This document shows positions 7,610 to 64,000 of a stretch of 64,000 nt of DNA, in pieces (positions within the stretch are counted from its first letter, which is position 1; each line of letters starts with the position of its first letter). The position numbers and the translations under genes are program-made. The stretch is from positions 2,022,210 to 2,086,209 of the forward strand of contig JBFWNU010000001.1 of assembly GCA_050250895.1 (NCBI GenBank). Reading direction: 5' to 3'. The notes beneath the pieces are model-generated. The model did not search any database and was not told the origin of the DNA. It was given only the letters and a program-made list of their open reading frames with translations. The stretch is from Vulcanimicrobiota bacterium (GTDB taxonomy: Bacteria > Vulcanimicrobiota > Xenobia > Xenobiales > JADMJV01).

Positions 7610-8269
7610 TTAAGGCCGCGTCCGGGTGGCCGCGAACAGGTGTCCCGGACTCCCTTTGGGGGTCTTGCCGGCCCACAGCAGATCCTGGTCGAGTTCGAGG
7701 GCCGGTAGGCTGCGCAGCACATCCATGGCAGTCAGGTTCTCGCCTAGCACCAGGCCTTGCTCGATGACTCGCCCGAAGATGGCGCCTCCGCTCTGGCGCA
7801 GGTGGGGGTTGTCGGCCATGTTGATAAAGAGCTGGGTGGCCGCTCGCCGCTCCCCGTCTTCGGCCATGGCGATGGTGCCGGCCAGGGGCTCGAAGTAGTT
7901 GGGCTCGGCCTCGATGGTCTCGTTCTTCCAGTGGCGAAATTTGGGGTCGGGGTTGATGCCGAACTGGACCACGAAGTCGGGGACCACCCGCACCATGGTG
8001 GTGTCGTTGTAATAGCCCGAATCGACCAGTTCGAGAAAGCGAGCCACATGGCGCGGGGCGGCCACAGGATACAACGCAAGCGAAACCAAGCCGTGGCTGG
8101 TGGTCAGGTGGACCACGACCACCTCGCTCAACTCGGGAGCTTCGACCCCGACCAGGGCCTGCAGAGGCCCCTCTTTCGGGGGGGGCGGCGGCGCTTGGGG
8201 CGCCAGAAACCAGGCCGCCAATCCCACCACCATCACCAGCAGGGCCAGTTCTAGCAGGCGTCGGGTCAT
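7610..8269 (-). CDS. peptidyl-prolyl cis-trans isomerase, cyclophilin type, with an N-terminal TM or signal anchor
   Basis: Cyclophilin motifs are present: FHRVVPDFVVQFG, NMADNPHL, GGAIFGRVIEQGL. The real start is the ATG at 8269 (MTRRLLELALLV). It overlaps the upstream aldo/keto reductase stop as ATGA. Confidence 0.85.
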   Translation of the reverse strand: MTRRLLELALLVMVVGLAAWFLAPQAPPPPPKEGPLQALVGVEAPELSEVVVVHLTTSHGLVSLALYPVAAPRHVARFLELVDSGYYNDTTMVRVVPDFVVQFGINPDPKFRHWKNETIEAEPNYFEPLAGTIAMAEDGERRAATQLFINMADNPHLRQSGGAIFGRVIEQGLVLGENLTAMDVLRSLPALELDQDLLWAGKTPKGSPGHLFAATRTRP

Positions 8270-49452: not shown

Positions 49453-49731
49453 TCACTCCGGTGGAGTCAGGTTGGGGTTGCCGAAGAACTTGATGCGATA
49501 GTCCCGAAAGGCCTGCCGCTCGGCGAAGTCGCTGGTCGAGAAGTAGGTGACCAGCGACGGCGCAGCCCGGTCGACGGTCGAGGTCTCGAGAGTGATCAGC
49601 TGGCCGCCCTGGTCGAAGTGATAGACCAGGCGATACTCCTCACTGTTTTCATGAACGGCAAAGCTCACGAGCCGGGCATCCTGGCCTTTGAGCCGCCGGC
49701 AGGCCTTGAGAAAGCCCTGATGGTTAAGCAA
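49453..49731 (-). CDS. stand-alone NuoC/30-kDa-subunit-like (Complex1_30kDa) domain fragment
   Basis: ...YRLVYHFDQGGQLITLETSTVDRAAPSLVTYFSTSDFAERQAFRDYRIKFFGNPNLTP resembles the NuoC block fYHL...PS...F..anWyEREvwDlfGI.F.GHPNLRR. Only a TTG start is available, at 49731 or 49791. It overlaps the PHP gene stop. Confidence 0.3.
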   Translation of the reverse strand: MLNHQGFLKACRRLKGQDARLVSFAVHENSEEYRLVYHFDQGGQLITLETSTVDRAAPSLVTYFSTSDFAERQAFRDYRIKFFGNPNLTPPE

Positions 49732-60080: not shown

Positions 60081-62201
60081 ATGTCCGGGCAGCTGATTTC
60101 TCGATACAGTGATCTGGTCAAATCCCTGATCACTTTGCTCGAACTGCGCAATCCCTATAATATCGACCACTGCAAATTGGTCGCACGCTATTGCGATCTT
60201 ATTGCCCGCAAGGCCGACCTCGACCCCGCTGCCCGCACTCGGGTGGTGCAGGCGGCCGAGTTGCATACCCTCGGCGTGAGCCTGCAGATGGAAGAGAAGA
60301 AGCCCTATCAGGCGCTGCCCATCACTCAGCTGGGGCTAACGTCGGGCCGCGATGTTCCCATGCACATCCGCGAAGAGCACATCCTTCGCAAGGTGCTGGG
60401 CGGCATTGAAGGGCTCGAGGATTGCGTCGACGTGATCATTCAGCGCTATGAGTGGTTCGACGGCACGGGCTCGCTCTATGGATTGGCGGGGGATGCGATT
60501 TTGCCGGAGGGACGTTTGCTGGCCGTGGCTGACGCTTTCGTGGACCTGGCTACCCCCAAGAAGCACCGACCTCAAGAAACGACGCGGGTGGTGCTGGCTC
60601 GCATCATGGAGCAATCCGGCACGCAGTTCGACCCCCGCTACGTGGAAGCCCTGGCCGCAGTGGTCGAAGAAGAGGAGGGTCGCTGGAAAGCGGCCGGACG
60701 GGTCGAGCACTTCGAGACGGCGCGTTGTCGCCACTATCTCAATCTAGGCCACCTCTATATTGCTATCCACGAGACCCGCTGGGCTCTGCGATCCTATCTC
60801 AAAGCCGAAAAGATCGCGGTCGAGATGCAAGACCGCGGCCTCGAGCTGGGAGCCATTTCCGGCCAGGTGATGGTCTATTGCAACCGGGGCGAACTCGAGC
60901 GAGCCCGCGAGGCCCTGCAACGGGCCCGCACCCGCAGCCAATCCGAACGCGAGCGGCACGGTTATCACCTGATGTGGGGCCTGGTCGAGTGGCTGAGCGG
61001 ACGCCAGGAAAACGGCAAGCAGATTCTCGACGGGGTGGCCGAACATTACGAGAAGACGCGCAACGTGCCTGGCCTGGCCGCCTCGTTGGGTTTGCAAGCC
61101 AACATGCTTTTGATTCACCGCGGGGTCGATGACATCGAGCACAAGGAGTGCCTTAAACGCTTTCTGACCCTGGTGCGCGACCACGACCTGTTTGATGTGG
61201 TCGAGCGTTACCGCCCCTTCACTCTGCCGGTTTTTCTGTCAGCCGTGGTCAACGACTGCGAGTCGGTGACAGCCCGGGCCATGCTGACCCGCATGGGCGA
61301 GCCCTGCCACCGCGCCCTGCGCGAGCGTCTCGGGGATAGTCCGCCCAGCGAGTGGACCAGTATCCTCTTGCCCGAGCCGGTCATCCCTACCCCCGAGGCT
61401 CCGCCCAAAGTCACCTCGACCAACCACAACAGCTCGAAGAAACGGGTGTTCGTGCGCACTCTGGGCGGCTTTCGGCTGGAGTTCGGCGACAAAGAGGTGG
61501 CCGAAGACGATTGGCCCACCCAGAAGTCGCTGCGCCTGTTTGCTCATCTGGCCTCAGGCAAAGGCATCCCCCTGTCCGACAACTATCTCATGGAGACCTT
61601 CTGGCCCGACTCGACCCTCGAAAAGGCCCGCAACTCGCTGCGTAACGCGATTCACCAGATCCGCTCGGTGCTAAAAGAAGTGCTCGACACCCCCCCCGCC
61701 CAGGTGGTCGTGCGCAGCCGCAAAGCCGGCACCGTGGCCCTGGCTCTCGACTACGAGCTAGACCTCGAGCGCTTCGACGGGTTGTTGACCCAGGCCCAGA
61801 CTCTGGTCGACCAGGGTCAGAGCCAACCGGCCCTCGAAGCCGTCAAGGCGGCCCTGGTTCTCTACAAAGGCGATTTTCTCGAGGGCATCTACGAGGACTG
61901 GAGCGACGGCCTGCGGGTGCAATACAAAGAGGCCTATCTACGCGCGCTGGCCCTCTTGGCCCGCGCCTATCTCGACGGCGGCAATCCCGAGGCCGCCGAG
62001 ATCTCGGCGCGCAAGATTCTCTCCGTCGACGACCTGCGCGAAGACGCCCACGGCTTGCTCATCGAAGCCGTCAATTCCGACGGCCGCCCGGCCGAGGCGA
62101 TTCGCCTCTATGAAGAGGCGGTCGAGCTGTTCGAACGCGAAATCGGCATCGCCCCCGCCTCCCTCACTCGTTTACTCGAGAAAGTCGGCCTGCTGCTCTA
62201 A
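60081..62201 (+). CDS. multidomain regulator: degenerate HD-GYP domain, TPR-like region, and a C-terminal SARP-family (OmpR-like wHTH plus BTAD) DNA-binding module
   Basis: The HD-GYP fold is recognisable, but HD is replaced by HT (AAELHTLGVS) and HHE..GYP by QRY..SLY (QRYEWFDGTGSLYGL...AVADAFVDL...GTQFDP). The C-terminus ...VFVRTLGGFRLEFGDKEV...LRLFAHLASGKG...ALVLYKGDFLEGIYEDWSDGLRVQYKEAYLRAL... matches AfsR/DnrI SARP plus BTAD. Confidence 0.7.
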   Translation: MSGQLISRYSDLVKSLITLLELRNPYNIDHCKLVARYCDLIARKADLDPAARTRVVQAAELHTLGVSLQMEEKKPYQALPITQLGLTSGRDVPMHIREEHILRKVLGGIEGLEDCVDVIIQRYEWFDGTGSLYGLAGDAILPEGRLLAVADAFVDLATPKKHRPQETTRVVLARIMEQSGTQFDPRYVEALAAVVEEEEGRWKAAGRVEHFETARCRHYLNLGHLYIAIHETRWALRSYLKAEKIAVEMQDRGLELGAISGQVMVYCNRGELERAREALQRARTRSQSERERHGYHLMWGLVEWLSGRQENGKQILDGVAEHYEKTRNVPGLAASLGLQANMLLIHRGVDDIEHKECLKRFLTLVRDHDLFDVVERYRPFTLPVFLSAVVNDCESVTARAMLTRMGEPCHRALRERLGDSPPSEWTSILLPEPVIPTPEAPPKVTSTNHNSSKKRVFVRTLGGFRLEFGDKEVAEDDWPTQKSLRLFAHLASGKGIPLSDNYLMETFWPDSTLEKARNSLRNAIHQIRSVLKEVLDTPPAQVVVRSRKAGTVALALDYELDLERFDGLLTQAQTLVDQGQSQPALEAVKAALVLYKGDFLEGIYEDWSDGLRVQYKEAYLRALALLARAYLDGGNPEAAEISARKILSVDDLREDAHGLLIEAVNSDGRPAEAIRLYEEAVELFEREIGIAPASLTRLLEKVGLLL

Positions 62202-62305
62202 CGGGCCTTCGGCCCGACGGCGAAGCCGAAACACCTCAGCGAAACTGAAACAACGCGGCGAAGCCGCCCAGTGTTACGACGCGAAGCGTCGACTATCCCA
62301 AAACC

Positions 62306-62443
62306 TCGAGGTGAGCCAAAGCGAACCTCGCTCCTTCCTCACGAGCGAAGCGAAGTGCTCCTTCCTCACGAGCAAAGCGAGTGCTCCCCTCTCACGAGCG
62401 AAGCGAAGTGCTCCTTTCTCACGAGCAAAGCGAGTGCCTCGCC
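62306..62443. repeat. tandem direct-repeat array, four 26-27-nt units alternating between two variants (A-B-A-B, 53-nt super-period) plus a degenerate fifth unit. Each unit contains the mini-hairpin-forming core GCGAAGC.
   Basis: Unit 1 is 62338-62364, CTCACGAGCGAAGCGAAGTGCTCCTTC. Unit 2 is 62365-62390, CTCACGAGCAAAGCGAGTGCTCCCCT. Unit 3 is 62391-62417 (variant A again) and unit 4 is 62418-62443 (variant B). More GCGAAGC(G)-containing half-sites lie at 62215-62300. There are no spacers, so this is not a CRISPR array. Confidence 0.7.
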
Positions 62444-62528
62444 GGTTCGAGGATCTTTAGGCACGGCAACGAAGCAAGCTGCCGGTATGGGGAAATCCCC
62501 AGCTGAGTAAGAACGGAGTGGCCTTAGA

Positions 62529-64000
62529 ATGGATACAACCCAGGCAAGAATCGAATCGGCAAAGAGCGACCACGCCGAGCCCGATGTCGAAACCTTAGAA
62601 ACTCGAGAATGGCTGGACTCTCTCGACTATGTGTTAGCCCATAGCGGGCCTGAGAGAGTCATCGAGCTAATGGGCCAGCTGCAGGCTCACGCACAGCGCC
62701 ACGGCGTGACCTTCCCCTTCACAGCCAACACCCCGTACATCAACACCATCCCCCCGGACCGCCAGCCGCCCTACCCGGGCAGCCGCGAGATCGAGCGTCG
62801 CATCAAGAGCATCATTCGCTGGAACGCCATGGCCATGGTGGTCAGGGCCAACAAGAACGAGAGCGGCATCGGCGGGCACATCTCGACTTACGCTTCGGCC
62901 GCCACCTTGTATGAGGTCGCCTTTAACCACTTCTTGCGCGGCAAAGACGAAAACGGCGTGGGCGACATGGTCTACTTTCAGGGCCACGCTTCTCCGGGCA
63001 TCTACGCCCGCGCCTTTCTCGAGGGGCGACTCGATCAGGAGCAGCTCGAGAACTTTCGCCGAGAACTCAAGCCGGGCGGACTTTCCTCTTATCCGCATCC
63101 CTGGCTGATGCCCGACTTTTGGGAGTTTCCCACGGTGTCCATGGGTCTGGGGCCGATCATGGCCATCTACCAGGCCCGCTTCAACAAGTATCTGATCAAT
63201 CGTGGCCTGATGCCCGCCAGCGACCGCAAGGTGTGGGCCTTTTTGGGCGACGGCGAGACCGACGAGCCCGAGTGCCTGGGCTCGATGACCCTGGCCTCCC
63301 GCGAGAAGCTCGACAATCTGATCTTCGTGGTTAACTGCAATCTGCAGCGCCTCGACGGTCCGGTGCGCGGCAACGGCAAGATCATCCAAGAACTCGAAGC
63401 GGCCTTCCGCGGCGCCGGATGGAACGTCATCAAGGTCATCTGGGGCCACGATTGGGACGACCTCTACGCCCGCGATAAGGACGACTTGCTGGTCAGACGG
63501 GCCGGCGAGATCGTCGACGGCGAGTATCAGAAGTATGTGGTCGAAGACGGTGCTTACATCCGCGAACACTTCTTCGGCAAAGACCCGCGCCTGCTGGAAC
63601 TGGTCAAACATCTCTCGGATGAGCAGATTCACCGCATGCGGCGCGGCGGCCACGACCCCGAGAAGGTGCACGCCGCCTTCGCGGCGGCTCAGCGGGCCAA
63701 GGGGCCAACCGTCATTCTGGCCAAGACCATCAAAGGTTACGGCCTAGGCGAAGCCGGCGAGGGCCGCAACATCACCCACCAGCAGAAGAAACTCAACGAA
63801 GACGAACTTAGCTTCTTCCGCACTCGCTTTGGCATCCCCATCAGTGATGAAGAGGTGACCAAAGCGCCGTTCTACCGTCCCGCTGACGACAGCCAGGAGA
63901 TGATTTATCTCAAAGAGCGTCGCCAGGCCCTGGGCGGTTCGCTGCCCAAGCGGGTCAACCAGTGCAAGCCGCTCGAGATGCCGAGCGACAAGTGCTTCGA
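62529..64000 (+). CDS. aceE: pyruvate dehydrogenase E1 component (homodimeric AceE type), 5' ~490 codons. The gene continues past the window end.
   Basis: ...TPYINTIPPDRQPPYPGSREIERRIKSIIRWNAMAMVVRANK...GGHISTYASAATLYEVAFNHF...YFQGHASPGIYARAFLEGRL...LSSYPHPWLMPDFWEFPTVSMGLGPIMAIYQARF...FLGDGETDEPE...NLIFVVNCNLQRLDGPVRGNGKIIQELE...WNVIKVIWG... matches AceE nearly block for block. The ORF track does not list it because there is no stop inside the window. Confidence 0.9.
   Translation, partial: MDTTQARIESAKSDHAEPDVETLETREWLDSLDYVLAHSGPERVIELMGQLQAHAQRHGVTFPFTANTPYINTIPPDRQPPYPGSREIERRIKSIIRWNAMAMVVRANKNESGIGGHISTYASAATLYEVAFNHFLRGKDENGVGDMVYFQGHASPGIYARAFLEGRLDQEQLENFRRELKPGGLSSYPHPWLMPDFWEFPTVSMGLGPIMAIYQARFNKYLINRGLMPASDRKVWAFLGDGETDEPECLGSMTLASREKLDNLIFVVNCNLQRLDGPVRGNGKIIQELEAAFRGAGWNVIKVIWGHDWDDLYARDKDDLLVRRAGEIVDGEYQKYVVEDGAYIREHFFGKDPRLLELVKHLSDEQIHRMRRGGHDPEKVHAAFAAAQRAKGPTVILAKTIKGYGLGEAGEGRNITHQQKKLNEDELSFFRTRFGIPISDEEVTKAPFYRPADDSQEMIYLKERRQALGGSLPKRVNQCKPLEMPSDKCF

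Follow-up and report, generated by a model that had tools for sequence, protein, structure and literature searches.

A stretch of 64,000 nt from the genome of a Vulcanimicrobiota bacterium (GCA_050250895.1, contig JBFWNU010000001.1, forward strand) was analyzed; it is called the window below, and all coordinates are positions in it. Near its 3' end, a spacer of 327 bp separates a gene for a putative regulator from aceE, the gene for pyruvate dehydrogenase (PDH) E1. The spacer carries a tandem array of 26/27-nt repeat units (U0 to U4), preceded by four short hairpins (H1 to H4), and the nature of this array is the subject of the present analysis. The features of the locus were as follows.

60081..62201, plus strand: 706-aa HD_5 / weak winged helix-turn-helix (wHTH) / BTAD regulator gene (Pfam), TAA stop at 62199-62201
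62202-62528: spacer between that stop codon and the aceE ATG at 62529
62202-62216, plus strand: hairpin H1, CGGGCC-TTC-GGCCCG, directly after the stop; terminator-like, no T tract; missing in the relative L004
62218-62228, plus strand: hairpin H2, with GCGAAGC at 62220
62218-62267, plus strand: 19-nt mini-array of hairpin CGGCGAAGCCG plus an AAACA-type spacer, about 2.6 copies (period 19, score 56 in Tandem Repeats Finder, TRF)
62255-62267, plus strand: hairpin H3, with GCGAAGC at 62258; predicted DNA fold -5.0 kcal/mol, z = -2.3
62277-62291, plus strand: hairpin H4, CGACGC-GAA-GCGTCG, with GCGAAGC at 62281; predicted DNA fold -5.9 kcal/mol, z = -2.5
62307-62330, plus strand: U0, degenerate unit, 6-bp stem CGAGGT/ACCTCG closing apex GAGCcAAAGCGA
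62330-62356, plus strand: U1 (A unit, 27 nt)
62357-62382, plus strand: U2 (B unit, 26 nt)
62383-62409, plus strand: U3 (A unit, 27 nt)
62410-62435, plus strand: U4 (B unit, 26 nt)
62330-62435, plus strand: array U1-U4, head-to-tail A-B-A-B (TRF, dimer alignment and unit pattern)
62434..62464, plus strand: junction hairpin GTGCC[TCGCCGGTTCGAGG]ATCTTTAGGCAC; its inner CCTCG/CGAGG stem is missing in L004
62448..62528, plus strand: non-repetitive aceE-proximal region outside the repeat array, containing a conserved element (62448-62474) and the Shine-Dalgarno (SD) sequence
62515-62518, plus strand: aceE SD sequence GGAG
62529..64000, continuing past the window end, plus strand: aceE, PDH E1 (Pfam Transketolase_N; homologues named pyruvate dehydrogenase E1)

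Anatomy of the repeat array

The tandem 26/27-nt direct repeats described in the first-pass annotation of this DNA were confirmed. TRF reported 62317-62437 with a period of 27, 4.5 copies and a score of 161, which made it the top tandem repeat of the window. The 53-nt A-B dimer was duplicated with 92% identity (62330-62382 versus 62383-62435), and a degenerate unit pattern gave 4 matches against 0.01 expected. The proposed composition of four A-B-A-B units plus one degenerate unit was borne out by U1-U4, with 27, 26, 27 and 26 nt, and by U0. The repeats do not fill the entire aceE upstream region as had been stated, since the array makes up some 40% of the spacer and the final 80-90 nt or so are non-repetitive.

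On the plus strand, each unit consists of a C/T-rich linker, CAC, an apex and GTG. The linkers are GCTCCTTCCT, GCTCCCCTCT or GCTCCTTTCT; their minus-strand sequence is GTGAGGAAGGAG, which takes the position of the GTAG-type tag of repetitive extragenic palindromic (REP) sequences. The apex is GAGC-GAA-GCGA(A) in A units and GAGC-AAA-GCGA in B units, and the motif GAGC(G/A)AAGCGA was located at 62343-62353 and 62396-62406. The A-unit apex is the d(GCGAAGC) mini-hairpin with GA on either side (tandem G.A pairs), closed by the short stem CAC/GTG; in U0 the closing stem is GGT/ACC, lengthened to 6 bp. The GCGAAGC cores, which had been assigned to the units in general, were present in U1 (62345) and U3 (62398) and absent from U2 and U4, both of which carry GCAAAGC.

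Between the stop codon and U0 lie the four GC hairpins with GAA/TTC triloops. H2 and H3 are spanned by the 19-nt mini-array, which is separate from the unit array and contains an exact 11-nt repeat and a degenerate middle copy. The additional GCGAAGC copies upstream of the units had been called many; only three were found. Of the 23 GCGAAGC/GCTTCGC heptamers of the window, 5 fall within the 327-bp spacer (Poisson p = 5e-8). U0 has a predicted DNA fold of -6.0 kcal/mol (z = -3.4). The unit stems comprise 3 bp (CAC/GTG) plus the apex, or 5 bp (GAGCA/TGCTC).

CCTCG/CGAGG motifs flank the array on both sides (62304-62311, 62325-62330, 62437-62441 and 62447-62452). TCGAGG occurs at 62306 and 62447, and CCTCGAGG is a palindrome. 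This bracketing might mean that the conserved CGAGGA element described below gave rise to the array, or was the place beside which it inserted. On the plus strand, 62330-62435 is open in three of three frames, with peptides such as SRAKRSAP and SHERSEVLL; two of the minus-strand frames contain TGA stops. Spurious open reading frame (ORF) calls, for example 62271-62510, are therefore possible. A CRISPR array was ruled out, as the units adjoin directly with no spacers between them. A further candidate unit, CTCACGAGC at 49664, was rejected as a lone chance 9-mer within coding-like sequence.

Recurrence and variation of the unit

A strict unit pattern gave 0 matches in the genome-contig collection, which does not include the source genome. 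An exact 21-22-nt stretch of the unit was found on L002 and L003, two contigs of one metagenome of the Joint Genome Institute (JGI). These contigs hold three arrays of 24-27-nt units with the form CCCTCA-(short hairpin)-CTTCT (L002 3290-3615; L003 7414-7576 and 8239-8367). Two of the arrays lie between convergent genes as inverted clusters, and one lies between Lon-domain and GTP-cyclohydrolase-II genes. The TAG stop of several flanking genes lies within the first unit (TAG-AAGCTCG...). Both unit orientations were seen; with respect to their flanking genes, the L003 units point the opposite way from the units of the window. By tblastn, no regulator or aceE homologue was detected on L002 or L003, and the search against all loci gave no orthologues from the window lineage for these contigs. 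L003 also carries, on the minus strand at 8189-8240, a near-consensus sigma-70 promoter (TTGACG-17 nt-CATAAT) between the array and the GTP-cyclohydrolase-II gene; its -10 box ends 14 nt upstream of the ATG, which would give a leader of about 7 nt at the usual start distance.

Similar arrays, including an inverted cluster, were found in L097, a metagenome-assembled genome (MAG) labelled Clostridia. In L017, an Acidobacteriota MAG, five intergenic sites within 3 kb hold units tagged GTAGGGG/GTAAGGG.

The apex was followed across genome contigs (L007-L125) and viral contigs (L127-L342). Its extended consensus is GCGAGC-GAA-GCGAGC, even within AT-rich surroundings. The genome-contig scan for two CGAGCRAAGCGA copies within 8-38 nt gave at least 119 stretches. 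Among the matches listed, the hosts were Acidobacteriota, Chloroflexota, Bacteroidota, Actinomycetota (many mycobacteria), Myxococcota, Patescibacteria, Halobacteria and Thermoplasmatota. On either side of the apex stand mutually complementary bases, whose sequences are lineage-specific and highly varied. Again among the matches listed, complementary flanks of at least 3 bp occurred in 102 of 258 distinct genomic contexts against about 25 expected, those of at least 4 bp in 60 of 258 against 8 expected, and those of at least 3 bp on viral contigs in 136 of 316 against about 30 expected.

The doublet pattern with GAA/AAA loops gave at least 120 matches on viral contigs, compared to 2 and 26 for two scrambled versions of matched composition, a control that covers part of the compositional effects. 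Other G-N-A loops were also frequent (GCA 29, GTA 34), whereas non-GNA loops were rarer (GAT 1, GAC 7). Since GAA, GTA and GCA outnumber GAT and GAC, the recurring apex follows the G-N-A loop rule of mini-hairpins. No Rfam family was assigned at 18 loci with the apex motif, and no published description of the apex as a repeat tip was found. One relevant occurrence of GAGCGAAGCGA was found in the literature, in a repeat-derived rep-PCR primer for M. intracellulare (PMC10117815).

Unit number also differs in a close relative. L004 (GCA_020431725.1, a MAG contig) has a regulator gene that is 96% identical, with aceE downstream, and its spacer measures 142 bp versus 327 bp in the window. It holds two units versus four plus U0, and lacks 62202-62319 (118 nt of the hairpin block) as well as two units. 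When L004 4228-4300 was aligned with window 62199-62330, the TAA stop ran straight into GCGAACCTC, the 3' half of U0, and the junction showed AA microhomology only. Because U0 is truncated there, a deletion in L004 is the simplest reading. An independent Logan contig with an identical regulator gene (L001) is identical to the window through 62303 and ends there, just before U0, apparently because the repeat interrupted the assembly.

We read the array as a REP-like or BIME-like (bacterial interspersed mosaic element) cluster of mini-hairpin repeats, variable in size through tandem duplication and deletion and incidental for aceE, with a probability of about 0.6. Between the two roles that the first-pass annotation had offered, aceE operator or REP-like structural element, this supports the latter, given that the unit is also found between unrelated genes in both orientations, that unit number varies and that the apex recurs widely. 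The variation in repeat number between strains, proposed there as a check, was seen as two units in L004 versus four in the window, with L004 being a short-read MAG.

Under this reading, the units would fold whenever the DNA or its transcript is present as a single strand, and the cluster may grow and shrink via slipped-strand mispairing or unequal recombination. Here, such events would comprise a 53-bp A-B dimer duplication for the window lineage and the loss of 118 bp for L004. A RAYT-like (REP-associated tyrosine transposase) Y1 enzyme may have seeded the family. The cluster would then be a passenger, lodged behind the 3' end of the regulator gene and ahead of the conserved control region of aceE. 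Likely side effects include a structured barrier and protection of the 3' end of the regulator transcript; should the aceE leader include the array, part of the aceE SD sequence's accessibility may be lost to pairing with the CUCC linkers.

Several observations weigh against this reading. By nearest-neighbour parameters the unit hairpins are weak (-2 to -3 kcal/mol), and shuffled sequences were equally good; the stability of mini-hairpin DNA is not accounted for by standard parameters, according to a 2026 review (PMC13037366). The B-unit apex (GCAAAGC) is broken. A G-to-A change at the loop-closing position of the mini-hairpin restores binding of single-stranded DNA-binding protein (SSB) (PMC13037366), and for this reason the A-unit apex is regarded as intact and the B-unit apex as broken. 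The tag reads GTGAG (the complement of CTCAC) instead of GTAG/CGTC. No Y1_Tnp or other transposase was found among 39 window ORFs or in the gene table of L001. The window contains a single locus with the unit in 64 kb, and no units were found in about 110 kb of non-redundant DNA of relatives other than L004. The copy-number difference itself could be mimicked by a collapsed repeat, as L004 is a short-read contig. The GC content of L002/L003 is 69-71% versus 62.8%, and their similarity could be convergent.

A rival reading is a purely local variable number tandem repeat (VNTR), generated by in-situ slippage at one hairpin-prone sequence, with convergence accounting for the likeness elsewhere. 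The single locus, the 92% identical dimer duplication, the copy number that differs from L004 and the divergent GC content of L002/L003 agree with it, as does an apex that sits on unrelated stems in very diverse taxa, which fits independent origins. We consider this origin unlikely, however, because the 21-22-nt identity with L002/L003 includes linker and stem bases and exceeds the 11-nt apex, and because the same linker-plus-hairpin architecture occurs elsewhere in several arrays per locus.

More tentatively, and with considerable doubt on our part, GCGAGC-GNA-GCGAGC (the mini-hairpin plus tandem G.A pairs) might be an undescribed cross-domain module of repeated DNA that promotes its own duplication, with the aceE array as one instance. 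A hyperstable single-strand hairpin would then drive amplification into arrays and into dispersed families, across bacteria, archaea and viral contigs alike, through slippage, SSB exclusion, priming or an unrecognised enzyme acting on the apex. The hairpin tip of 11-15 nt recurs with lineage-specific stems in repeats of many phyla and of viral contigs and obeys the G-N-A loop rule, which suggests that the stability of a hairpin in single-stranded DNA is in itself a factor in the spread of short repeats among prokaryotic genomes.

The regulator, the conserved element and the control of aceE

The upstream gene had been annotated as a SARP-type (Streptomyces antibiotic regulatory protein) regulator. 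The BTAD domain was supported (4.3e-22), and the protein proved to be an HD_5 protein as well (N-terminal, 7.8e-16); its wHTH match (Trans_reg_C) scored 24.5 bits, under the Pfam cut-off of 26.2. Its 75 homologues are confined to an Eremiobacterota/Xenobia-like lineage, the named ones being Eremiobacterota/Xenobia. aceE is strongly conserved, with a top homologue at 77% and matches scattered over phyla.

The regulator gene adjoins the PDH operon in 3 of the 6 lineages sampled. Their arrangement is tandem in both the window and L004. It is divergent in L126 (22-3870) and L343/L344 (4383-12154), where the operon comprises aceE, E2 and E3 and the spacers measure 138 and 113 bp; L343/L344 are among the matches listed, with about 20 similar places besides. 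aceE is not near the regulator in L005, L006 and L345-L350, and these loci hold no repeat unit either. As the arrangement is tandem in one case and divergent in the other, a gene rearrangement separates the window lineage from the others. The repeat cluster is located at the junction of this rearrangement.

When the sequences upstream of aceE were aligned for the window, L004, L126 and L343, a conserved aceE-proximal element emerged, CGAGGAnCT-N10-GCnnCGAAG, at window 62448-62474, directly 3' of the array. Its counterparts are L004 4293-4319, L126 1636-1662 (minus strand) and L343 9909-9935 (minus strand). The element holds two related hexamers 22 bp apart (CGAGGA-N16-CGAAG). Its first heptamer is TCGAGGA in the window and L126 and resembles a SARP heptamer. 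No repeat units were found upstream of aceE in L126 or L343/L344, despite the adjoining regulator. Because these relatives lack units and the element lies 3' of the array, the array is an unconserved segment that separates the end of the gene from the conserved control region of aceE.

SARP operators consist of direct heptamer repeats of the TCGAGXX type with 11- or 22-bp spacing, and one TCGAGGA heptamer lies just 3' of the array. In the arrayed-operator proposal of the first-pass annotation, the units would bind the upstream-encoded HD/BTAD regulator and thereby control aceE. In its favour, direct repeats adjoin a BTAD regulator gene, and the regulator and PDH operon are recurrent neighbours. 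However, the array has a period of 26.5 bp, whereas SARP heptamers stand 11 or 22 bp apart by a -10 box, and no promoter-like site was found in the spacer. The units are not conserved along with the regulator: they are missing from the divergent spacers of L126 and L343 and occur at loci without the regulator (L002, L003). With the wHTH match below threshold as well, the operator proposal for the array was not sustained, and we regard it as highly improbable. The recurrent adjacency makes a regulatory link between the regulator and PDH plausible. If such a link exists, the hexamer pair conserved outside the array would be the better operator candidate, and the element at 62448-62474 could be the true operator or promoter element of the PDH operon. 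The adjacency of the HD/BTAD regulator and PDH, combined with CGAGGA-N16-CGAAG, singles out a specific candidate pair of regulator and target for an uncultured lineage.

A dedicated cis-acting leader RNA was also considered, in which four anti-SD-like CUCCUU(C/U)CU linkers would pair with the aceE ribosome-binding site and tune translation. In predicted folds the SD sequence GGAGU (62515-19) pairs with GCUCC of U1, and its predicted probability of being unpaired is 0.12-0.18 with the array versus 0.4-0.76 without it. The U4 linker matches 9 nt of the usual 3' tail of 16S rRNA. A scan of 62000-62700 for promoters and terminators, including the whole spacer, detected no sigma-70-like promoter; since there is none between the array and aceE, the array may be co-transcribed with aceE. 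On the other hand, the aceE leaders lack the array in L126 and L343 and carry half of it in L004, and the units elsewhere lie at gene 3' ends and in the opposite orientation to transcription. Whole-spacer folds were not compelling, with z only -2.1 on the plus strand and -1.4 on the minus strand, and Rfam returned nothing meaningful (whole window at the gathering threshold, spacer at E <= 10). A leader function is thus very unlikely in our estimation.

The same data bear on an antisense small RNA or protein sponge comparable to CsrB/RsmZ, which would be a minus-strand RNA with four GGA-containing purine-rich loops (GUGAGGAAGGAG). Repeated GGA motifs do lie between short stems on the minus strand, and the scan gave a minus-strand terminator-like site at 62267-62255. 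Yet one terminator found against 1.4 expected is the chance level, no promoter-like site or Rfam match was obtained, and the minus-strand fold is not distinctive. No CsrA gene, transposase or integrase was found among the 39 window ORFs scanned, and unit orientation varies at other loci. The CsrA-sponge idea was rejected on the promoter, terminator and Rfam results, and an antisense role of any such kind is scarcely credible.

For the annotation of this locus, the repeat should not be entered as an aceE operator or a riboswitch-like leader. The array could help to tell strains apart, and it probably causes assemblies to break. Elsewhere in the window (1-50000), Pfam gave no match at E <= 1e-5 for roughly half of the large ORFs whose third codon positions are rich in GC. 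The products recognised there included two Ser/Thr kinases, an FHA-adenylate cyclase, a type II secretion system protein F, an aldehyde dehydrogenase, a clostripain-like peptidase and an SDF symporter.

Comparison with known repeat systems

The REP-like reading was compared with described repeat families. GTAG REPs occur in clusters and in tandem (head-tail) arrangement, have very short stems in some families and can supply a TAG through their ends (PMC3733652). Like REP/BIME elements (Di Nocera et al. 2013, PMC3733652; RAYT-associated REPs, PMC2817692), the units are short, extragenic and of hairpin type and stand in head-to-tail or inverted groups, with inverted clusters in L002, L003 and L097. 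The array lies outside coding sequences, between the stop codon ending at 62201 and the ATG at 62529. An unpaired purine-rich tag is present at one unit end, the unit end supplies a TAG stop to a flanking gene in L002/L003, and number and arrangement vary between strains (four plus U0 versus two in L004). REP units are imperfect palindromes of 20-40 nt that form a stem-loop, and the units here measure 26-27 nt. In contrast, the stems of the array are only 3-5 bp, compared to 5-13 bp in REPs (PMC3733652, Table 1), and the conserved part is the hairpin apex GAGC-GAA-GCGA and not the stem.

Mini-hairpins of the d(GCGNAGC) class stand out for an exceptional resistance of the folded strand to heat and nucleases. 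They are known from phage G4/St-1 primase sites, RSF1010 ssiA and the promoters of the N4 virion RNA polymerase (PMC13037366). The array shares with them a GCGAAGC or CCGAAGG-like heptamer at the hairpin tip and an apex that obeys the G-N-A loop rule. The known examples are single functional signals in single-stranded replicons, whereas here the mini-hairpin is the apex of arrayed units.

Mycobacterial interspersed repetitive unit (MIRU)-type VNTRs are likewise tandem repeats between co-directional genes with differing copy number, as in the short-read MAG L004; the A-B dimer of 53 bp and the presence of GAGCGAAGCGA in the M. intracellulare rep-PCR primer (PMC10117815) add to the likeness. However, the unit here is 26-27 nt versus about 40-100 bp in MIRUs, no small ORF overlaps the adjacent stop and start codons, and 53 nt is not a multiple of 3. 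The array therefore behaves like REP/BIME elements and MIRU-type VNTRs, and was filed under neither owing to its tag, the size of MIRUs and their ORF overlap. It is best called REP-like, its defining marks being a GTGAGG-type tag and a conserved GNA mini-hairpin apex that is flanked by G.A pairs.

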